Of a stretch of 19,825 nt of DNA, positions 5,818 to 19,825 are shown piece after piece. The notes beneath the pieces are model-generated. The model made no database searches, was not told the DNA's origin, and saw only the letters and a program-made list of their open reading frames with translations. The stretch is from Bdellovibrionota bacterium (GTDB lineage: Bacteria > Bdellovibrionota_C > UBA2361 > JBIKWN01), in the NCBI GenBank assembly GCA_044356295.1, contig JBIKWN010000047.1, positions 1 to 19,825 of the forward strand, in the 5' to 3' direction. Every line of letters starts with the position of its first letter. The first letter of the stretch is position 1. A program made the position numbers and the translations under genes.

Positions 5818-7017
5818 ATGTTTGCTCCTGATCCCAAATATGGAGATGAAAATGAATCTTTTCATTCTCTTTCTGTTGACCCAAAATCCTATGATATTGG
5901 TGGTGCTCTTTTAACCAGTGCCGAGCATCTTACGTCACAGCAAGAATTTGAAATTGGCAAAATGAAGTCTGAAGCTTCATTAGAGTTTTCAAAAGCACTT
6001 TTATCAAATGCATTTGTGCAGGAAGTAATTATTAAATCGCTCCGGTTGGTTCGTGAAGGCACTCTTGCTCACCGAAAAGGTGATTTTCATGTTCGGAAGA
6101 GTAAAGCTAAAAGCTCAGATCAATTTAGTGATTCCGAATTACAAGCTCTCTACTTTAAACTTATAGATGAATCAGTATCTCGAGAAGAAAAAATTTCACT
6201 GTTTTCATCAATCAAACTATCTGAAAAATTTCGATATGAATTAGTAACATTCTGTAAGGAAGATAAAGCAGTAAAAAATGCTCTAACAAGATATAGTCAA
6301 TTGATTGAGTCGTTTATCGTATCAAACTATGGATTGGTTCTATCGATTGCGAGAGGTCACTCCGGTACGAACGAACAGTTGGAAGATAACTTTTCTCGTG
6401 GTGTTATAGGGCTTCATTTGGCAGCTCAAAAATTCGATGCAACCAAAGGGTATCGTTTTAGTACATATGCGACTCATTGGATTCGTAGAGAAATTATTCG
6501 TGGTATTCAGAATGAAGATTCGAGTATTAGGTTGCCTTCATATATTCATGGTTTGTTGTTGCAGATTGAGAAACTCGATCATAGTGCTCGTGTACATTTG
6601 GGGCGGGAATTAAAAGAGGAAGAAATTTTAGAATTAACAGGCGATAAAGCTTTATCTAAATTAAAAATTCGACGCGGTGATTTATACGTATCTTCACTCG
6701 ATGATCCGCTGCCACATAAAGACAATGTGGGCACTAAAACTATCGACTCAATTGCAGATCCTGATGAAGACACGGTCTCTTTGTTACTTGAAGATGAAAA
6801 ACGAAAAGCATTAATCCAATGTATATCCAAGGGATGTCGTACAGATTCACAAAAAAAAGTTCTCTATCTTAAGTATGGTTTACTTAATGGGCAACCAATG
6901 GATACTGATGAAATCGCTGAAAGGCTTAGATGTACACGCAAAGTAATACTACAAATGGAAAGAACAGCTATTAAAAATTGTAAAACATACGCCAAAGAAA
7001 GGGGTATTAAACTCTGA
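5818..7017 (+). CDS. Sigma70-family RNA polymerase sigma factor (RpoD/RpoS/RpoH-like, divergent alternative sigma)
   Basis: Region 1.2-like HLTSQQEFEIG; region 2 SNYGLVLSIAR...GVIGLHLAAQKFDATKGYRFSTYATHWIRR; region 3 SIRLPSYI...SSLDDPL; region 4 VLYLKYGL...DEIAERLRCTR..ILQMERTAIK; no region 1.1. Confidence 0.88.
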   Translation: MFAPDPKYGDENESFHSLSVDPKSYDIGGALLTSAEHLTSQQEFEIGKMKSEASLEFSKALLSNAFVQEVIIKSLRLVREGTLAHRKGDFHVRKSKAKSSDQFSDSELQALYFKLIDESVSREEKISLFSSIKLSEKFRYELVTFCKEDKAVKNALTRYSQLIESFIVSNYGLVLSIARGHSGTNEQLEDNFSRGVIGLHLAAQKFDATKGYRFSTYATHWIRREIIRGIQNEDSSIRLPSYIHGLLLQIEKLDHSARVHLGRELKEEEILELTGDKALSKLKIRRGDLYVSSLDDPLPHKDNVGTKTIDSIADPDEDTVSLLLEDEKRKALIQCISKGCRTDSQKKVLYLKYGLLNGQPMDTDEIAERLRCTRKVILQMERTAIKNCKTYAKERGIKL

Positions 7018-7110
7018 ACAGCTGACCAGTTCGAAAGTCCCTTAGTTTAAAATTTAGGTGTAGAATACCTAACATCAAGTAACTGTTAGCATTCTTGGCA
7101 CCTATCCTTC

Positions 7111-7140
7111 TTGCGTCAGAGTCCCTAAGAAGAGTATAAT
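7111..7140 (+). promoter_or_regulatory. Putative sigma70 promoter of the rimP-nusA-infB operon
   Basis: TTGCGT (7111-7116), 18-nt spacer, perfect TATAAT (7135-7140). Confidence 0.6.
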
Positions 7141-7150
7141 CGAAATGTTT

Positions 7151-7273
7151 TCGAGGGTTTAACGACCGTTTTAACCCGATAAAATCCACCTCAAAAAATT
7201 TTGTTTCGAGGTGAGGTTGTCTTTATTGAAAAGATAAAGATGACACTCAGGCGATAGCTTTGGCTTATTTTTT
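7151..7273 (+). promoter_or_regulatory. Structured 5' leader of rimP (tandem hairpins, including a rimP-leader-like hairpin)
   Basis: GGGTT..AAC-gacc-GTT..AACCC (7155-7177); CACCTC/GAGGTG (7187-7192/7208-7213); TCTTTAT/ATAAAGA (7220-7226/7234-7240); AGGC-GATA-GCTT (7249-7260) followed by a T-rich run to ATG 7274. Confidence 0.45.
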
Positions 7274-7750
7274 ATGAGTATTGATCGTTGGCAGATAATT
7301 TCGCAGATGTGCAAATCAGAGGGGATTGAACTCTTTGAACTTGAACAAAGTGGAAATATTTTAAGAGTGTATATTCACCAACCTGATGGCTCTGGAATTC
7401 AGCATGCTCACTGCGCTGGCGTCAGCAACAAGATTTTAAATCATGTTGAGGTCGAAAAGATTCTTCCCGGAAGCATGCTTCTAGAAGTTTCAAGTCCTGG
7501 GGTCAACAGAAAGCTCACTCGAACTGAGCATTTTGTTGGAGCGATCGGCGAACGAGTGAAAGTTTCTTTCCGTCAAGAAGACGGTAAAAAAGTTTCAGTC
7601 ATTGGAATTCTTAAAGCTGCTAATGATTCTTTGTTAACTATTGATTCGCGAAGTGACAAGAAGAAGAGCGATAAGAGCGAAGCTGAGCAGCAAATAATGA
7701 TTCCTCTGAGCGCTGTAGTTGAATCAAGAGTAGATTTTTTATTTAAGTAG
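7274..7750 (+). CDS. rimP: Ribosome maturation factor RimP
   Basis: ILRVYIH...GI...C..VS, LEVSSPGVNRKL..EHF...IGERVKV; immediately upstream of nusA. Confidence 0.95.
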   Translation: MSIDRWQIISQMCKSEGIELFELEQSGNILRVYIHQPDGSGIQHAHCAGVSNKILNHVEVEKILPGSMLLEVSSPGVNRKLTRTEHFVGAIGERVKVSFRQEDGKKVSVIGILKAANDSLLTIDSRSDKKKSDKSEAEQQIMIPLSAVVESRVDFLFK

Positions 7751-12581: not shown

Positions 12582-13579
12582 TGAATACCGTTGATTTATA
12601 TGCTGCCACCTTTGATGAAGTAATTAAAATCATCAATGCCAACGATCAGATATCAGTTATAAGCCATTACAATCCAGACAGTGACGCCTATGGATCGAGT
12701 ATCGGATTAGCGCTCTCATTACAGGCAGCAGGCAAAAAAGTATCTATTATTAACGAATCGGGAATTGTTGATCGTTATGAATGTCTTCCTGGAATAAATC
12801 TCATAGAAAAGAATTTAGGAATTTCACTCCCTTTAGTTATTGCATGTGATTGCGGAGCACTAAAAAGAGTAGGCGATACACAGGTACCAGCTGTTAAAAG
12901 TGGAAAAGTGATCGTTAATATTGATCACCATGTATCAAATGAAATGTTTGGAACGACGAATCTTGTTGTAGAAACTGCGAGTTCAACATCAGAGATAATT
13001 TTTGAGCTTATACAACGAGCAGGCTTTCCACTAACTAAAGATATAGCATCCTTACTTATGGCTGGGATTATTGGAGATACAGGATCGTTTCGATATTCGG
13101 CAACCACTGCAAGAACTTTTGAAATTGGTGCGGTGTTGATGAAAGCAGGGGCAAATCCGTATGAGCTTTATAAAAACTTATATGCGAATCCGCCCATCGG
13201 TGCCGTACGACTTCAAGCTGAAAGTATGCTCAACCTTACTACTGACTTTAATGGTGCGTATGCAGAAGTCATTGTGACTGCAGACAGTATTAAAAAACAC
13301 CAAGCATCACTCGATGATACTGATGGTCTTGCAGAACGAGCAAGAGATCTGAAAGGAGTTAAAATTGCTGCTTCAGTTCGTCAGGATGGAGCATTATGGC
13401 GTGTCAGCTTACGCTCTGTTTCCGAAAAATATGATGTTTCAAAAGTTGCTCAATCATTTGGTGGAGGTGGTCACAAACAAGCAGCAGCGTTTCGTATTAC
13501 TCAACCACTAACAGTTGTTCAAAAAAATATTAGGGAAAAGGTTCTTGAAGCTCTTAAAACTGCTGAAGGAGTCCAATAA
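12581..13579 (+). CDS. nrnA: Bifunctional oligoribonuclease/PAP phosphatase (DHH/DHHA1 family)
   Basis: SHYNPDSDAYGS, ACDCG, NIDHHVSN, GDTGSFRY, VSLRS, FGGGGHKQAAA; TAATG overlaps with rbfA and truB. Confidence 0.93.
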   Translation: MNTVDLYAATFDEVIKIINANDQISVISHYNPDSDAYGSSIGLALSLQAAGKKVSIINESGIVDRYECLPGINLIEKNLGISLPLVIACDCGALKRVGDTQVPAVKSGKVIVNIDHHVSNEMFGTTNLVVETASSTSEIIFELIQRAGFPLTKDIASLLMAGIIGDTGSFRYSATTARTFEIGAVLMKAGANPYELYKNLYANPPIGAVRLQAESMLNLTTDFNGAYAEVIVTADSIKKHQASLDDTDGLAERARDLKGVKIAASVRQDGALWRVSLRSVSEKYDVSKVAQSFGGGGHKQAAAFRITQPLTVVQKNIREKVLEALKTAEGVQ

Positions 13580-14241
13580 TGCAACAAGATGGTGTCATCG
13601 TCCTTGATAAAGCCCAAGGGATTACTTCTGCTCATGCAATTGCGCAGATTAAAAAAAAACTTCAATTAAAAAAAATCGGACATGCCGGAACTCTTGATCC
13701 AATGGCGACAGGTATCTTAGTTTGTCTTTGCGGTACTGCTACAAAAAAAGCTACTGAATTTCAAGGTGGTAAAAAAACGTATGAAGGACAGATTCTTTTA
13801 GGCGTAACGACTGATACGGATGATTTAGACGGTGAAATTCTTACTAAGAATATTGTTCCAGATCTTACCGATGATTTTTTAGTTCAAATTCATAAAACTT
13901 TTCAAGGGGAAATATCGCAGATTCCCCCACAAGTTTCGGCGATCAAAAAAGATGGTAAACGTGCTTATGATTTGGCTCGAAAAGGGGAAGTCGTTGATAT
14001 TCCAGCTCGCCAAATTACCATCTATGAAAGTAGTTTTAAAAAAGTTTCTGATACTGTTATTTTTTATTCAGTAACTTGTTCTACTGGAACATATATACGG
14101 TCTATCGCAAGAGACATTGGCACAATGCTTGGATGTGGAGGAGCAATTAAAGAGCTTCGAAGAGTTGCAAGTGCCCCATTTGTTATAGCAGACGCAGTTC
14201 GTTTTGAAGATTTAACGGAGGAAAATATATGCCATCACTAG
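13579..14241 (+). CDS. truB: tRNA pseudouridine(55) synthase, short form without the C-terminal PUA domain
   Basis: LDKAQGITS, KIGHAGTLDPMATGIL, TTDTDDLDG, QIPPQVSAIKKDGKRAYDLARKG, CSTGTYIRSIARDIG, LRR. Confidence 0.95.
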   Translation: MQQDGVIVLDKAQGITSAHAIAQIKKKLQLKKIGHAGTLDPMATGILVCLCGTATKKATEFQGGKKTYEGQILLGVTTDTDDLDGEILTKNIVPDLTDDFLVQIHKTFQGEISQIPPQVSAIKKDGKRAYDLARKGEVVDIPARQITIYESSFKKVSDTVIFYSVTCSTGTYIRSIARDIGTMLGCGGAIKELRRVASAPFVIADAVRFEDLTEENICHH

Positions 14242-15575
14242 TCGTTATTGGAGCCCAGTGGGGCGATGAAGGAAAAGGTAAACTTGTTGATTACTTAACC
14301 TCAAAAGCTGAAATGGTTGTTCGTTTTCAAGGTGGAAGTAATGCCGGACATACTCTTGTAGTCGATGGAGTTAAAACTAAATTAAGTCTTGTACCTTCTG
14401 GAATTCTTAGAAAAGAAACAAAGTGTTTAATCGCTGCTGGGGTTGTATTAAATCCCCAAACTTTTATTAAAGAAGTGCAAGACCTTCAACAAGTTGGTGT
14501 CGATTGTTCACCTTCGAGATTAGTTATTGACCGTGATGCACAATTGGTTCTTCAAACACATATTGCAATTGATGTTGCTCGTGAAGAAGCTAAGGGGAAA
14601 GACAAAATTGGAACAACAGGAAGGGGAATTGGTCCTTGCTATGAAGATCGTGCTGCCAGAACTGGTGTTAGACTTGCAGACCTTCAAGATCTTACTGCAC
14701 TAAAAACCAGATTGCAGAAAGATGTTGATCAGAAAAATCTTTATTTAAAACATGTTCTTGGAAGTCAAAATCAAGTTTCATTCGATGAGTTGTGGGCATC
14801 AATCGAAGAAGCTGCGAAAAAACTACTTCCCTATATTGGTAATGGTAGTGTCTTAGTTGATACAGCACGCAAAACAGGTGAAAAAATTGTTTTTGAAGGT
14901 GCACAAGGAACATTACTCGACCAAGTACATGGTAATCTTCCGTTTGTTACCTCTTCTAATACAATTGCTGGAGCTGTAACCACAGGATGTGGAGTCGGAG
15001 CAAAGGTAATTGATCACGTCTTAGCAGTAACAAAAGCATATTCGACTCGTGTTGGAAGTGGACCATTTCCAACGGAGCTCAAGGACGAAACGGGCGATAA
15101 AATTCGCCAGGCAGGGGCTGAATTCGGCACTAATACTGGACGTGCTCGTCGTTGTGGATGGTTTGATGCAGTAGCGATGAAAAGAGCCGTTCGTTTAAAC
15201 GGAGCTGATTCATTGGCAATAACAAAACTCGATGTTCTTACAGGAATGGGTAAATTAAAAATAGCGATTAAGTATACTCTTGATGGTATAGAAATTGATG
15301 ATGTCCCAGCTCTTGCTAGTGAAGTAGACCGTGTGGTTCCTGAATTTATTGAGCTTGACGGATGGGATGAAGACCTCACCGCTGCAAAAAAATGGCACCA
15401 TCTTCCTGCATCGGCTAGGCTCTATCTTACAACAATTGCAGATATTCTTGGATGTCCAGTTTCGATCGTAAGTGTGAGTCCTGAACGAGATTCGACTATT
15501 TTTTCTGGAAACGCACAGTTTGTGAAAAATTTTGTGGATAAAAATGATGAGCTTACCAGCGTTGATGACAACTGA
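14229..15575 (+). CDS. purA: Adenylosuccinate synthetase
   Basis: GAQWGDEGKGKLVD, RFQGGSNAGHT, IGTTGRGIGPCYED, FEGAQG, YSTRVGSGPFPTE, GTNTGRARRCGWFD, TKLDVL; GGAGG ribosome site inside the truB 3' end. Confidence 0.98.
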   Translation: MPSLVVIGAQWGDEGKGKLVDYLTSKAEMVVRFQGGSNAGHTLVVDGVKTKLSLVPSGILRKETKCLIAAGVVLNPQTFIKEVQDLQQVGVDCSPSRLVIDRDAQLVLQTHIAIDVAREEAKGKDKIGTTGRGIGPCYEDRAARTGVRLADLQDLTALKTRLQKDVDQKNLYLKHVLGSQNQVSFDELWASIEEAAKKLLPYIGNGSVLVDTARKTGEKIVFEGAQGTLLDQVHGNLPFVTSSNTIAGAVTTGCGVGAKVIDHVLAVTKAYSTRVGSGPFPTELKDETGDKIRQAGAEFGTNTGRARRCGWFDAVAMKRAVRLNGADSLAITKLDVLTGMGKLKIAIKYTLDGIEIDDVPALASEVDRVVPEFIELDGWDEDLTAAKKWHHLPASARLYLTTIADILGCPVSIVSVSPERDSTIFSGNAQFVKNFVDKNDELTSVDDN

Positions 15576-16938
15576 AAATTTTAAAACCATTCTTGTAGTT
15601 GATGATGATGCTTCGATTCGTAAATCGCTGCAGGGTGTGCTTTTAGATGAAGGCTATCTTGTTACTGAGGCGAGTAATGGACTTGATGCACTTTCATTAA
15701 TAGAAACTGCGACTCCTGATGCTGTCCTATTAGATATATGGATGCCGGGTCTTGATGGTTTGGAAACTCTTGAAAAAATTAAGAAATCATACCCCGATCT
15801 TCCCGTAATTATGATAAGTGGACATGCAACGATCGCAACTGCAGTAAAAGCAACACGTATGGGTGCTAATGATTTTATTGAAAAGCCAGTTGATCTTGAA
15901 GCGGTACTCCTTGTTCTTGAAAAAGCTGTAAAGCGAATTCCATCTTCGTTACAAGATGATAAACTCAAAAATAACTCTATCTTACATGAAGAGATTGATT
16001 CTGAGTTAACTCAAGTTTCGAGCGAAACTAAAACCCACATCACACCGATTGTTTTTACAAAAAAAGCATTACTCGGCGATAGCATACAACAAAAAACACT
16101 TTCTAAAGCTGCAATATTATATGGCTTAGGCCTTCATTCAGGTAAGAAAAGTGGGCTTGTTCTTGAGCCATTGCCTGCAAATTCAGGAATTCATTTTGTT
16201 GGTGTTTCAGAAAAAACAATTGTCCCAGCTCATGTTGCCTATGTTGAATCAACTGGATGGGCTACTACTTTAAAGTTAGGAGATACTCAAGTTGCCACTA
16301 TTGAACATCTTATGTCAGCGCTTCATGCTTACGGAATCAGTAATCTTTTAATAAAATGTAATGGAGAAGTCCCAGTATTTGACGGTTCGGCTAAGGAGTT
16401 TTGTAATGTTATCGAGGGTACCGGTATTGAAACCCAGTTAGAGGCATCTCAGAGCGACTGGAGGGAAATAGTAATCCGTGAGCCAATAAAATTTCAAAAA
16501 GAAAAGGGAGAGTACATTGAGCTAGTTCCTGCAGATACTTTTTCAATTGATTATACACTGAAGTATCCAGCACCACTTAATACCCAGGAATTTTCATTTA
16601 CACTTTCTGATTCTGAAACGTATAAAAATGAAATCGCACCTGCTCGAACTTTTGGCTTTGTTAAAGATATTAGCTATCTTCAGAAACAAGGCTTAGCGCT
16701 TGGTGGACGTTTCGATAACTTCTGTTTAATTGCTGATTCAGGTCCAATTAATACAAACTTCCGATTCGACAACGAACCGGTCCGCCACAAGATTCTTGAT
16801 GCTATCGGCGACCTTTATCTATTAGGTCGTAAAATTCGTGGTAAAGTAAATGCGATGATGACAGGTCACTCTGATAATATTGAAATTCTTCGACTCGTTC
16901 TACAAAAAATGGATGATGAACTATCATCAAGGAAATAA
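15565..16938 (+). CDS. lpxC: Fusion protein: N-terminal response-regulator receiver domain + UDP-3-O-acyl-N-acetylglucosamine deacetylase
   Basis: REC: ILVVDDD...VLLDIWMPGLDG...VIMISGHA...DFIEKP (about 15580-15930). LpxC from about 16090: QKTL....GLGLHSG, TIEHLMSAL, EVPVFDGSA, IAPARTFGF, RFDNEPVRHKILDAIGDL, GHSDN. One continuous frame; ATG 15565 (MTTENF) is the likely start. Confidence 0.93.
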   Translation: MTTENFKTILVVDDDASIRKSLQGVLLDEGYLVTEASNGLDALSLIETATPDAVLLDIWMPGLDGLETLEKIKKSYPDLPVIMISGHATIATAVKATRMGANDFIEKPVDLEAVLLVLEKAVKRIPSSLQDDKLKNNSILHEEIDSELTQVSSETKTHITPIVFTKKALLGDSIQQKTLSKAAILYGLGLHSGKKSGLVLEPLPANSGIHFVGVSEKTIVPAHVAYVESTGWATTLKLGDTQVATIEHLMSALHAYGISNLLIKCNGEVPVFDGSAKEFCNVIEGTGIETQLEASQSDWREIVIREPIKFQKEKGEYIELVPADTFSIDYTLKYPAPLNTQEFSFTLSDSETYKNEIAPARTFGFVKDISYLQKQGLALGGRFDNFCLIADSGPINTNFRFDNEPVRHKILDAIGDLYLLGRKIRGKVNAMMTGHSDNIEILRLVLQKMDDELSSRK

Positions 16939-16941
16939 TTG

Positions 16942-18009
16942 ATGTTCCCAAAAATACGCATTATAGCAATCGTTCTCATTCTACTGATTGGATGCAATAA
17001 ACCAACTGACAAAAACCAGATCTCAATCGGAGCTATTGCAAGTCTTTCCGGCGCTGCAGGTGAGCAGGGTAAGAACTGGGTACAAGGTGCCGAACTTGCA
17101 ATTCATCAAGCAAACAGTAATGGCGCAAACGATAAAACTTTTGCTCTTATCGTTGAAGATGATCAGACTCAACCTGCAAAAGTGGTGGCAGCGATGTCAA
17201 AACTTGCACAAGTAAACCAAGTAGTCGGTGTCATTGGAGGCACATGGGATTTTTTAGGAGAAGCTGCCTATCCACTCGCCGAGAAATTCAAGATTCCTTT
17301 TATTACTCCCTCAAACCCAGTTGAAGTCATAAGCAGCGCTGCCAAGTCTTCTGGATATGTTTTCTCGACCGGAATGTCACTTGCGGCTATGAAAAATGCC
17401 TTATCTGACTTTATTGATTCAGAGAATATCAAAGGTCGCTTTACGGGGAATATTGCTATTGTATTTCCAGACCTTCCCTTTGGTACAAGACAAGCAGAAA
17501 TGGTCCGAGAGGTCATTAAAGAAAAAAAACTTTTGCTCTCATTTGAATATGCTTTTCCACCTGCCAGTTTAATGTCTGATACGGTAAAACTTGCGGCTCA
17601 AAAAATACTTACCGAGAAGCCGGACCTAACCTATATGGTCATTGACTATAATGGTTTAGATCTGGTTACTAAAGAATTCACAGCCCAAAAAATTCAACCG
17701 AAAGTGATGACAACGCAGCATCTCGATCAAGCTTTTTCTTTCTCAAAGGATCCGAGCCGATACAAAAATATATTTGCGCTGTACCCGTTAGCACCATCTT
17801 TAGGGTTTGAAGAAGCCTATCAAGATTATTTTAAAACTCCTCCAAGAGTATATGGATATGAGGGATATCTTGCTGCAAATTTTTTAATTAACGTAGCTAA
17901 GGGTGTTTATACATTACCGAAAGATACGCAGCAGCTCCTTTCAGATGGTCAAATGGAGTCTAAAGCTCGAATTATGACTACAGATAGTGGACAGTTCTTG
18001 CCTTACTAA
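16942..18009 (+). CDS. ABC-type branched-chain amino acid-like (LivJ/Peripla_BP_6 family) substrate-binding lipoprotein
   Basis: Signal peptide with lipobox LLIGC; ISIGAIASLSGAAGEQG..GAELAI...LIVEDDQTQPAK...VIGG...KIPFITPS pattern of type I periplasmic binding proteins. Confidence 0.82.
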   Translation: MFPKIRIIAIVLILLIGCNKPTDKNQISIGAIASLSGAAGEQGKNWVQGAELAIHQANSNGANDKTFALIVEDDQTQPAKVVAAMSKLAQVNQVVGVIGGTWDFLGEAAYPLAEKFKIPFITPSNPVEVISSAAKSSGYVFSTGMSLAAMKNALSDFIDSENIKGRFTGNIAIVFPDLPFGTRQAEMVREVIKEKKLLLSFEYAFPPASLMSDTVKLAAQKILTEKPDLTYMVIDYNGLDLVTKEFTAQKIQPKVMTTQHLDQAFSFSKDPSRYKNIFALYPLAPSLGFEEAYQDYFKTPPRVYGYEGYLAANFLINVAKGVYTLPKDTQQLLSDGQMESKARIMTTDSGQFLPY

Positions 18010-18058
18010 ATAATGTATTACGTTGTACTTTTTTTTTCAGGTACGATGAGAGTTAATA

Positions 18059-19273
18059 ATGAAACCACTTGCTGAAAAGTTACGACCATTAACTGCAGAT
18101 CAATTTTTTGCTGATCCTGCTCTTGCGCAGACGTTGAAACCATTTATAGAGGGACAGTATATTGCTTCTCTTCTCTTATGGGGTCCTCCAGGATGTGGAA
18201 AGACTACTCTGGCAAGAATTATTGGTGCAAAAAATAAAAGTAAATTTACTTTCGTAGAGCTTTCAGCCGTAATGAGCGGCGTAAAGGATATCAAGGAACT
18301 AGCAGAAGCTGCGAAAGATAACCCAATCATTTTGTTTCTTGATGAAATCCACCGATTTAATAAATCACAACAAGATTCATTACTGCCCCATGTTGAAAAT
18401 GGATCGATAATCTTAATCGGAGCGACGACTGAAAACCCAAGCTTTCAAGTGATTGCGCCACTTTTGTCTCGATGTCGTGTGGTTGTTTTGCCAGAGCTAA
18501 GTAATTCGTCACTCGAAAAAATCATAGAACGTGCATCAGAAGTATTACAGATATCAATTCCCGAACAGCTCTCATCCCAACTCATGAAAGCATCGCAAGG
18601 TGATGCAAGAAAATTATGCACCATTCTTGACCATCTGTATCAATCAAATAACGTAACTCTTGATGGACTTTCTCGCTATTTCACTGAAACAATTCCTTAC
18701 GACAAATCTGGTGACCAACATTATGACTTTGCTTCAGCGATGATTAAGAGCATACGTGGGTCGGATCCAGATGCAGCGCTCTTTTACGCATTTAAAATGA
18801 TTGAAGCAGGAGAAGACCCAAGATTTATTTTCCGAAGACTTATTATTTCAGCCAGCGAAGATGTCGGAAACGCTGATCCCAATGCCCTTCGGCTTGCAGT
18901 TGCAGGAGCTGAAGCATTTGATCGAATTGGATTACCAGAAGGAAGGATCCCATTAGCCCAAGTGATTACCTATCTAGCGTCTGCTCCAAAATCAAATCGT
19001 TCATATATTGCGATGCACCGAGTCATTGCTTCAATTAAAAAAAATCCAGCTGCAGTGCCTCCATTACACCTTAGAAATGCACCAACTGGACTTATGAAGA
19101 ACCTCGGACATGGCAAAGACTATCAATATACTCACGACCTACCTGGAGCATATGCTGCTGATGTTCGCTATCTTCCAGATGAAGTACAAGATGCGCCATT
19201 TTACGAACCAAGTAACTACGGGATTGAGAGTAAAATTAAAGAAAGGTTCGCTTTGCTTCGTAAAAAAAATTAA
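18059..19273 (+). CDS. rarA: Replication-associated recombination protein A (MgsA/RarA AAA+ ATPase)
   Basis: [89 protein letters not shown]. Confidence 0.97.
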
Positions 19274-19746
19274 AAGTCATTTTTGTTTATAGAATTAGAC
19301 AAACGACCAGGTAACGTATCAACAAGATAATCAAATGCACTTGCCCCAACTTTTGTTCCTATAAAGTATCCAAGTGCCCCTCCTGCTAAACCGATAGGTC
19401 CAAGTGTGACTCCTAATGTAAGCAGCGCTAACCCACCAAGAGCAAGACCACTTACTTGAGTTGTTGTATACTTAGCAATCTCTTTTCTTGAAGTAGTCAG
19501 ATGAGTATCGTTATTTGCTTCATCATATTCTATTGCATTGCCTATACGTCCCAGGCCACCAAAAAGCTCAATATTTGAAAGTGTTTTATTTACAAAGGAT
19601 CTGTTTTCAGTCGTCGTATCAAATCTATCAGAAAATTGTTTGAAATCATCAAGAATTGGTTGTGCAATTAAATCAAGTCTCTCATTCAAAGGATCGCTGT
19701 AAGGCGAGGAATATAGGGAAGAATTTTGTTGGATTTTATCTGTCAT
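19270..19746 (-). CDS. Hypothetical membrane protein with C-terminal glycine-zipper hydrophobic hairpin
   Basis: 158-aa ORF, ATG start, convergent with rarA (4-nt TTAA overlap); VSGLALGGLALLTLGVTLGPIGLAGGALGYFIGTKVG. Confidence 0.65.
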   Translation of the reverse strand: MTDKIQQNSSLYSSPYSDPLNERLDLIAQPILDDFKQFSDRFDTTTENRSFVNKTLSNIELFGGLGRIGNAIEYDEANNDTHLTTSRKEIAKYTTTQVSGLALGGLALLTLGVTLGPIGLAGGALGYFIGTKVGASAFDYLVDTLPGRLSNSINKNDF

Positions 19747-19825
19747 AAATTATGAATCGAACAAAAAGTAATCTAAGTTTCCTGTTAAATTTGGTAACGC
19801 GAAGGTCGCGAAGTAAGCGAAGGAT

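Follow-up and report, generated by a model that had tools for sequence, protein, structure and literature searches.

The stretch of DNA analysed here (the window) is a whole contig of 19.8 kb (19,825 nucleotides, JBIKWN010000047.1) from a Bdellovibrionota bacterium whose genome (assembly GCA_044356295.1, here G000) amounts to 2.96 Mb at an estimated completeness of 93.6%. Its subject is a gene for LpxC, an antibiotic target and the deacetylase whose reaction is committed and rate-setting for lipid A synthesis, in which the enzyme is preceded, in the same reading frame, by the receiver (REC) domain of a two-component response regulator. The gene and its parts are laid out as follows:

15565..16938, plus strand: REC-linker-LpxC fusion gene, 457 amino acids (aa) from the ATG at 15565; the sole lpxC in the genome
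15589..15909, plus strand: receiver domain, residues 9-115 (Pfam Response_reg)
15910..16089, plus strand: linker, residues 116-175 (60 residues)
16039..16080, plus strand: clade-specific motif I-[NT]-P-[IV]-V-F-x-K-x-x-L-x-G, residues 159-172
16090..16902, plus strand: LpxC deacetylase domain, residues 176-446, with E247-H248, T362-F363, H408-K409, D412, D416 and H435

The original prediction, made from the letters of the window alone, had described a single frame running from receiver through linker to LpxC, and this description is borne out by the open frame and by the Pfam matches to Response_reg and LpxC within it. On the plus strand, the frame ending at 16938 is open from 15532 and offers four candidate starts (TTG 15532 and ATG 15544, 15547 and 15565), none of them accompanied by a clear Shine-Dalgarno sequence. 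The positions given for D57 (15733-15735), K107 (15883-15885) and the TIEH (16297-16308), HKILD (16786-16800) and GH (16864-16869) motifs are all right. The claim that no Met separates the end of the receiver from LpxC also holds and extends to the other start codons: residues 100-200 contain no in-frame ATG, GTG or TTG, the last start codon being the ATG of residue 99, so that LpxC alone cannot start within the frame. A stop codon or frameshift hidden in the linker was looked for in contigs from two other studies, which cross it (X2 over 15949-16207, X3 over 15841-15991) with no differences and no indels; a third contig, X1, runs the length of the window but may itself be the source of this DNA.

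The linker is predicted to be disordered at residues 128-141, and its acidic/polar part varies in both sequence and length. Across 66 aligned short-form relatives it measures 32-75 residues and is free to vary in sequence except in the motif at residues 159-172, which lies directly N-terminal to the canonical LpxC start, is kept in relatives of 58-82% identity and, in the same comparison, is absent from more distant fused forms. In an AF2 model of the fusion both domains are confident (mean pLDDT 90.7, pTM 0.79), and the motif itself has a pLDDT of 81-88, residues 170-173 being modelled as a strand; perhaps it serves for docking or as a latch. A docking prediction of the LpxC domain (176-457) against the receiver (1-125) scored 0.00 and gave no verdict.

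Is the receiver intact, and to which kind does it belong? Pfam Response_reg (PF00072) matches residues 9-115 at 110.4 bits (cut-off 30.2), and the acidic pocket (D13/D14/D15), the phospho-acceptor D57, S85 and K107 are all in place. The notion of an intact NtrX/NtrC-style receiver was confirmed, with NtrX the best match both in NCBIfam and among solved receivers. In NCBIfam the top family is NtrX (NF051870; 126.1 bits over profile positions 3-144), as against 99.5 bits for NtrC and 95.9 bits for AtoC. Among solved receivers, 4d6x (101.8 bits) and 5m7n (98.4 bits), which we take to be Brucella NtrX (the PDB titles shown give no organism), stand above NtrC 1dc7 (86.2 bits). The equivalog cut-off of NF051870 (600 bits, for a full-length protein of REC, AAA+ and helix-turn-helix (HTH) domains) is not reached by the 126.1 bits of the fusion protein, which by these profiles is NtrX-like in its receiver only and is not an NtrX.

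The enzyme part is matched by Pfam LpxC (PF03331) at residues 176-446 with 274.7 bits (cut-off 27) over profile positions 1-267 of 268, and by the NCBIfam lpxC equivalog TIGR00325 with 236.2 bits against a cut-off of 187.25. The latter profile is covered only to position 275 of 297, which indicates that the enterobacterial C-terminal tail is missing. Along its length the LpxC part aligns with solved LpxC chains from P. aeruginosa, E. coli and A. aeolicus, at E values of about 1e-50 to 1e-41, and the zinc ligands H248, H408 and D412, the general base E247, and H435, T362 and K409 are present and aligned with the P. aeruginosa LpxC structures; in E. coli LpxC these residues presumably correspond to H79, H238, D242, E78, H265, T191 and K239. 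The earlier claim of intact catalytic and zinc residues is thus upheld by profiles, solved structures and the 66 relatives alike, and the LpxC part is, to judge from its sequence, a complete and catalytically competent UDP-3-O-acyl-GlcNAc deacetylase. A second lpxC, which the original prediction had proposed to look for, was not found: the only PF03331 match in the genome is the fusion gene itself. All lipid A synthesis would therefore run via the fusion protein.

The fusion is lineage-wide. In a sample of 124 genomes of the same GTDB phylum, whose nearest named records are Bdellovibrionota or Bdellovibrionales, the fusion protein found a match in 120; in 106 of these genomes a single match spans from residue 9 or before to residue 442 or beyond (two of them with a single in-frame stop), and the other 14 hold partial matches, mostly at contig ends. 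The four genomes lacking a match are G054 (90% complete), G058 (82%, one contig), G003 (66%) and G026 (77%), and a family search for LpxC (PF03331) in G058, G054 and G003 returned nothing. Separately, G058, a member of the same order assembled as one contig of ~2.3 Mb, is also without an orthologue of the NtrY-like kinase described below (best match 1e-18, to the generic kinase core); it may be a relative without lipid A synthesis. The best 120 matches listed from a collection of 5.8 billion proteins all carry both Pfam domains. In the alignment of the 66 short-form relatives (33-82% identity), D14, S85 and K107 are invariant (66/66 each), D13 is D in 63 and E in three, and D57 is D in 65 and N in one; on the enzyme side, E247, H248, F363, H408, K409, D412, D416 and H435 are found in 66/66, and T362 is T in 65 and S in one. 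Both the conservation of the architecture and the retention of the phospho-Asp, which the prediction had proposed to check, are found, and because these key columns are conserved while the linker varies, selection has kept the phosphorylation chemistry together with the enzyme.

Beyond this phylum-wide short form, a search of 1.84 billion protein representatives, 19 of which were scanned with Pfam, found long fused forms of 650-745 aa beside the short ones. Eight of the 19 combine REC, Sigma54_activat, AAA_lid and LpxC (one of them with HTH_8 as well), two are REC+HTH_8+LpxC, two REC+LpxC and one LpxC only; the remaining six join AAA+ remnants to LpxC without a receiver, are N-terminally shorter and may be fragments. 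Among proteins longer than 800 aa the matches were hybrid kinases aligned via their receiver only, and none of the best 120 listed carries LpxC. NtrX is the top family for all three long fused forms tested (288-344 bits, under the 600-bit cut-off). Because the architectures form a series from REC-AAA+-(HTH)-LpxC through REC-HTH-LpxC to REC-LpxC, with NtrX as the top family, the window protein can be read as a reduced member of a family of NtrX-like regulators fused to LpxC.

Which kinase could serve such a receiver? There is none in the window, and the earlier suggestion was that phosphorylation would act in trans, perhaps from an orphan NtrY-like kinase elsewhere in the genome. HisKA matches number 22 in G000 (20 above the Pfam cut-off) and belong mostly to hybrid kinases, and a kinase of the expected type, with a DUF4390 partner, was indeed found on another contig (C37):

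G000:C37:4677-6908: orphan NtrY-type kinase, 743 aa, with HAMP at 322-371, HisKA at 513-577 and HATPase at 621-729

The kinase has five hydrophobic segments (17-35, 49-67, 91-109, 110-128 and 295-313) and the H-box HEIKNP at 521. Its start is overlapped by the gene upstream, whose product, a PlrP-like DUF4390 protein (39.3 bits against a cut-off of 27) predicted to be periplasmic, has a signal-like N-terminus; the kinase gene further has ruvA and ruvB on its upstream side and fbp on its downstream side, and no response-regulator gene adjoins it. Its best NCBIfam match is the LIC_11548 family (251.6 bits, under the cut-off of that family). With a threshold of E 1e-40, 116 of the 124 phylum genomes have it, including all 73 high-quality ones. 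This kinase is the most likely candidate for the phospho-donor of the fused receiver, which it would serve in trans.

G000 also holds a second, separate link of a two-component regulator to lipid A genes, on contig C116 (13500-21500), where the following genes were found; the coordinates are those of locus L113:

3304-4683, minus strand: orphan sigma-54 activator, REC+Sigma54_activat+HTH_8, 459 aa
4732-5859, minus strand: AAA_5/AAA ATPase, 375 aa, co-directional with the activator
5935-6867, minus strand: lpxI, co-directional with the activator
6833-7636, minus strand: lpxA, co-directional with the activator

The activator is followed by BrkB/YihY and M16 peptidase genes, and no kinase is nearby. 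A second orphan sigma-54 regulator is encoded on contig C31. NtrX ranks fifth among the families matching the C116 regulator (after AtoC, NtrC, the PEP-CTERM regulator and ZraR) and fourth for the C31 regulator, which places both outside the NtrX-like lineage.

The case for pairing kinase and fusion comes from other lineages, in which the two genes are neighbours. Metagenome contigs were scanned with an alignment of 15 long forms, and 80 loci were kept, ranked by similarity to the long form; this ranking enriches NtrX-like neighbours, so the counts that follow speak for existence and not for frequency. The gene is fused in 22 of the 80 loci, 11 of which have at least 2.3 kb upstream, and in three of these 11 (L036, L041 and L052) a homologue of the C37 kinase lies 23-218 nt upstream on the same strand, with the fusion in the place of ntrX. 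These three kinase homologues carry NtrY_N at 28-36 bits (cut-off 23.2). In L036 and L041, moreover, ruvC-ruvA-ruvB stand just before the kinase, as in the ruvA-ruvB context of the G000 kinase, and the fusion gene therefore seems to have been relocated in the lineage of the window. In L036 (3422-3649) and L052 (3259-3546), the kinase is preceded by a small gene for DUF2905 (60-75 bits) and not DUF4390, and L041 has in this place a 105-aa frame to which no family was assigned; kinases that precede REC-lpxC may be served by a different small partner.

In the other 58 loci lpxC has no receiver in frame, some of these genes being cut by the contig start, and in eight of them (L060, L069-L072, L083, L090 and L104) lpxC is followed, 162-1119 nt downstream, by an NtrY-like kinase gene. 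DUF4390 is encoded between lpxC and the kinase in four of the five intervening frames tested (L069-L072). A phmmer search of the metagenome loci with the G000 DUF4390 protein gave no matches; DUF4390 was detected there by Pfam. The kinase is followed by an NtrX-like regulator gene in seven of the eight loci, the contig of L070 ending inside the kinase gene, and the two regulators scanned with Pfam (L071 and L104) consist of REC, Sigma54_activat and HTH_8.

These unfused, NtrY-adjacent regulators are close to the fused receivers. NtrX is the top family for all three tested (489-515 bits, under the 600-bit cut-off), and a profile built from fused receivers scores NtrY-adjacent regulators at 129-151 bits, the level of the fused receivers themselves, the C116 regulator at 110 bits and the other receivers of G000 at 55-110 bits. 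Judged by these comparisons, the fused receiver descends from an NtrX-like regulator. The unfused and fused forms part company in what connects such a regulator to transcription. The sigma-54 contact motif, as GAFTGA or GSFTGA, is kept by all six unfused NtrY-adjacent regulators, and GAFTGA is found in none of the 16 long fused forms, 13 of which keep a Walker-A-like motif. The promoters follow the same pattern. With the motif TGGCAC-N5-TTGC (at most two mismatches, GG and GC fixed) searched in the 300 nt before each gene, a sigma-54 -24/-12 element precedes 26 of the 41 unfused lpxC genes, including seven of the eight with a kinase cluster, as against 2/41 on the antisense strand, 28/738 in random windows of the same loci and 101/2050 in shuffles; none was found in the 300 nt upstream of the 23 fused genes or in the window. 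Taken together, the promoter and GAFTGA patterns suggest that unfused relatives drive lpxC from a sigma-54 promoter via the NtrX-like activator and that fused lineages gave up this route. As a side observation, the motif is present in 19 of the 33 loci between L059 and L109 whose unfused lpxC shows no NtrY cluster within the available DNA, and sigma-54 control of lpxC may on this count be much wider than the printed cases from Desulfovibrio and Leptospira.

We therefore come to regard it as moderately probable that LpxC serves in the fusion as the output of a response regulator, which the orphan pair of DUF4390 protein and NtrY-like kinase would feed in trans; in other words, a membrane sensor kinase of this lake bacterium probably controls outer-membrane lipid synthesis directly on LpxC. 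How might this have come about, and how might it work? In this reading, a full-length regulator (REC, sigma-54-type AAA+ and HTH) was joined to LpxC, shed the motif for sigma-54 contact and later shrank to REC-linker-LpxC, so that the receiver route would replace the sigma-54 transcriptional control of lpxC used by unfused relatives. An envelope or periplasmic signal would set the balance between kinase and phosphatase activity of the NtrY-like protein, whose H-box is of the bifunctional type, and phosphorylation of D57 would change LpxC output by receiver dimerisation, by release or imposition of an intramolecular block, or by altered stability. Both the pairing in G000 and any effect of phosphorylation are what we infer from the comparisons above. 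As to the sign of that effect, our guess, by analogy with the Rhodobacter, Caulobacter and Desulfovibrio systems, which hold lpxC expression down, is that the phosphorylated state lowers LpxC output. Going a step further, we put forward as a tentative possibility, for which we would not claim an even chance, that a dedicated NtrY/NtrX-like sigma-54 system for lpxC transcription was captured covalently by its own target, the periplasmic signal (kinase plus DUF4390) acting in fused lineages within seconds on the enzyme via D57. That the promoter motif stands before 26 of 41 unfused but 0 of 23 fused genes, and the contact motif in 6 of 6 unfused but 0 of 16 fused regulators, argues for control having passed from the transcriptional to the post-translational level, and against a fusion by chance.

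These thoughts find parallels in several described systems. In Desulfovibrio vulgaris, the regulator DVU2934 has lpxC as its one target and shares an operon with the kinase DVU2931, and the orthologous regulator operon of S. fumaroxidans has lpxC directly upstream (Rajeev et al. 2011; PMC3333781). The Dde_3000 kinase of D. alaskensis passes its signal to Dde_3003, a sigma-54 activator, and lpxC, which has a sigma-54 site, is the only gene strongly up in a Dde_3000 mutant (Kuehl et al. 2014; PMC4045070). This dedicated two-component system with a sigma-54 promoter at lpxC resembles the lpxC-DUF4390-NtrY-regulator loci and their motifs described here; it is, however, transcriptional and made of separate proteins. 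In Leptospira, a sigma-54 promoter is predicted at lpxC, and an NtrC-like EbpB (LIC_11549) is described (PMC12655853). Homology of these Leptospira and Desulfovibrio proteins, DVU2931/DVU2934 among them, to those studied here is a lead taken from their descriptions, not a result. In R. sphaeroides, loss of NtrYX raises lpxC mRNA 8.8-fold and also raises LPS, with no NtrX site at lpxC (Lemmer et al. 2020; PMC7240162), and a 2025 review of lipid A regulation has NtrYX repressing lpxC in this species, the effects reported being transcriptional (PMC12444477). For the enzyme itself, the same review describes control by FtsH/LapB/YejM proteolysis in E. coli and activation by MurA in P. aeruginosa. 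These two share with the fusion the target enzyme and the post-translational logic at the committed step, but employ a partner protein or a protease where the fusion has a covalently attached signalling domain.

On the side of the kinase, the closest description is that of PlrP-PlrS-PlrR in Bordetella, in which DUF4390/PlrP is a periplasmic third component and HEIKN, the H-box described for PlrS, is said to typify kinases that are bifunctional kinase/phosphatases (Wolber et al. 2026; PMC13001219). The G000 kinase resembles the NtrY layout in its N-terminal membrane segments, periplasmic stretch, HAMP, HisKA and HATPase, though not in NtrY_N or PAS, which Pfam did not detect in it, and has the HEIKN H-box and the overlapping upstream DUF4390 gene, as with plrP and plrS; what is missing from the arrangement is plrR, no regulator adjoining the kinase. 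Compared with NtrY/NtrX systems in general, the fusion has neither the AAA+ nor the DNA-binding domain and its output is an enzyme. In this last respect it is built like CheB-type regulators, which also join an N-terminal receiver through a linker to a hydrolytic enzyme domain. In CheB the receiver blocks the active site; the fold and pathway of LpxC are unrelated to those of CheB. CheA offers a further parallel: as it serves CheY and CheB, so one kinase would possibly serve both a classical regulator and a receiver-enzyme here. The fusion falls under two known kinds of control, that of response regulators whose output is an enzyme and that of lpxC by two-component systems. The original prediction knew of no functional characterisation, and the literature searched likewise yielded no publication on a REC-LpxC fusion, which is annotated there only as 'LpxC'; the words 'fusion', 'fused', 'receiver' and 'response regulator' are absent from the 2025 review (PMC12444477).

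Several observations weigh against the proposed kinase-to-LpxC signalling. Kinase and fusion are adjacent in none of the 124 phylum genomes and lie 35-280 kb apart when on one contig, so that the pairing in G000 rests on homology with other lineages; there, eight of the 11 fused loci whose flank is long enough lack an upstream kinase, and the enriched ranking of the 80 loci has to be borne in mind. In the C37 kinase itself, Pfam detected neither NtrY_N nor PAS at E 1e-3; both were detected in its homologues of L036, L041, L052 and L071, which match its first 500 residues at 167-221 bits. G001 and G002 keep the fusion with its phospho-site, yet the kinase finds no more than a weak match in them (1e-28, in frames of 597-612 aa). 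(That these two had lost receiver and kinase together was considered and rejected, as their frames show a divergent but intact REC-LpxC in both.) The long and, by prediction, partly disordered linker offers no obvious rigid coupling between the domains. A tree of the receiver domains (58 rows, none dropped) places the NtrY-adjacent regulators in one clade (95/92) among the fused receivers and nine of the 11 other G000 receivers in a separate starred clade, with the remaining two joining divergent fused forms on long branches flagged by the program; it is poorly resolved and affected by long-branch artefacts, and the number of fusion events is not readable from it. Finally, one relative of the 66, P0266, has Asn at the acceptor position, and the C116 or C31 orphan regulator could be the real or an additional partner of the kinase.

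The last of these points leads to a reading in which the kinase signals mainly to a classical DNA-binding regulator (C116 or C31), the receiver on LpxC being a side branch, a phosphate sink, or served by another donor such as a different HisKA kinase or acetyl phosphate. The C116 regulator is a full REC+Sigma54_activat+HTH_8 protein with no kinase nearby, stands in the order lpxA-lpxI-AAA-regulator and matches the NtrX profile over its full length better than any other protein of the genome (374 bits), and the kinase is unlinked to the fusion in all 124 genomes. NtrX is nevertheless only its fifth-best family, yet it comes first for the fused receiver and each of the six NtrY-linked proteins tested; the fused-receiver profile gives it 110 bits, as against 129-151 for NtrY-adjacent regulators; and in three loci the fusion itself occupies the ntrX position. 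We hold this reading to be decidedly unlikely. Unlikely as well, and in effect a variant of the preferred scheme rather than a contradiction of it, with the same signal and a different output, is a receiver that works as a phospho-dependent stability switch by exposing or hiding a degron or recruiting a protease, such that the amount of LpxC and not its rate is controlled. The idea echoes the receiver-type adaptors RssB and CpdR. It draws on the proteolysis by which LpxC is controlled in E. coli and possibly, through Lon, in alphaproteobacteria (PMC12444477), on the absence of the enterobacterial C-terminal tail (profile to 275 of 297), on the lack of any match to the LapB zinc-ribbon (PF18073) in the genome, and on the long flexible linker, which suits a signalling module on a tether more than one coupled by rigid allostery; the sequence, however, indicates no protease, and the PF18073 result is weak, as in its control PF18073 also matches Gram-positive genomes.

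Could the receiver have ceased to be a phospho-switch and have become a structural, dimerisation or localisation module? The Asn of P0266 and the retention of the fusion in G001 and G002, where no clear kinase orthologue was found, would fit this. Pseudo-receivers usually lose some phosphorylation residues, though, and here all five are retained in 65-66 of the 66 relatives, even where identity is as low as 33%, beside a linker that varies, which makes this alternative very improbable. That the fusion is an artefact, a misassembly or frameshift that joined a separate response-regulator gene to lpxC, has a practically negligible chance, as the contigs of other studies cover the linker unchanged, 106 of 124 related genomes and 22 metagenome loci show one open frame, and a separate lpxC would have no in-frame start codon. 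Signalling from the orphan kinase to the receiver on LpxC remains the reading that we prefer.

The fusion gene is flanked in the window by two genes that adjoin it directly:

14229..15575, plus strand: purA (adenylosuccinate synthetase), its stop overlapping the fusion-gene start by 11-44 nt
16939..18009, plus strand: periplasmic-binding-protein gene (Peripla_BP_6), beginning at the base after the fusion stop codon

Owing to the overlap, purA and the fusion gene are probably co-transcribed, and an identical purA-REC-lpxC overlap is present in locus L002. A scan of 13500-19825 for sigma-70 promoters and terminators found fewer sites than in shuffles and none at gene borders. The rest of the window is a housekeeping row of asd, truA, a sigma-70 family factor, rimP, nusA, ylxR, infB, rbfA, a DHH phosphoesterase gene, truB, purA, the fusion gene, the periplasmic-binding-protein gene and mgsA/rarA; five frames (103-308 aa; 1-420, 553-1479, 2155-2529, 2621-2932 and 19270-19746) gave no Pfam match at E 1e-5. 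Three loci from Bdellovibrionota records (L003, L004 and L005) share a feature without counterpart in the window: a frame of 1024-1071 aa, located ~2.6 kb upstream of REC-lpxC, carries a receiver at its C-terminus and probably encodes a hybrid kinase.

What is the significance of joining a receiver to LpxC? How LpxC is controlled in 'other organisms', beyond E. coli and Pseudomonas, figures as an open question in the 2025 review (PMC12444477). A receiver-LpxC fusion would place signal input, switch residue and regulated enzyme together in one purifiable protein, and direct signal control of outer-membrane synthesis would thereby become accessible through simple mutants. Fused and unfused relatives together would form an evolutionary series leading from transcriptional to post-translational control, and this series would tie the NtrYX/PlrSR family, whose physiological output is poorly understood, to a concrete target in the envelope.

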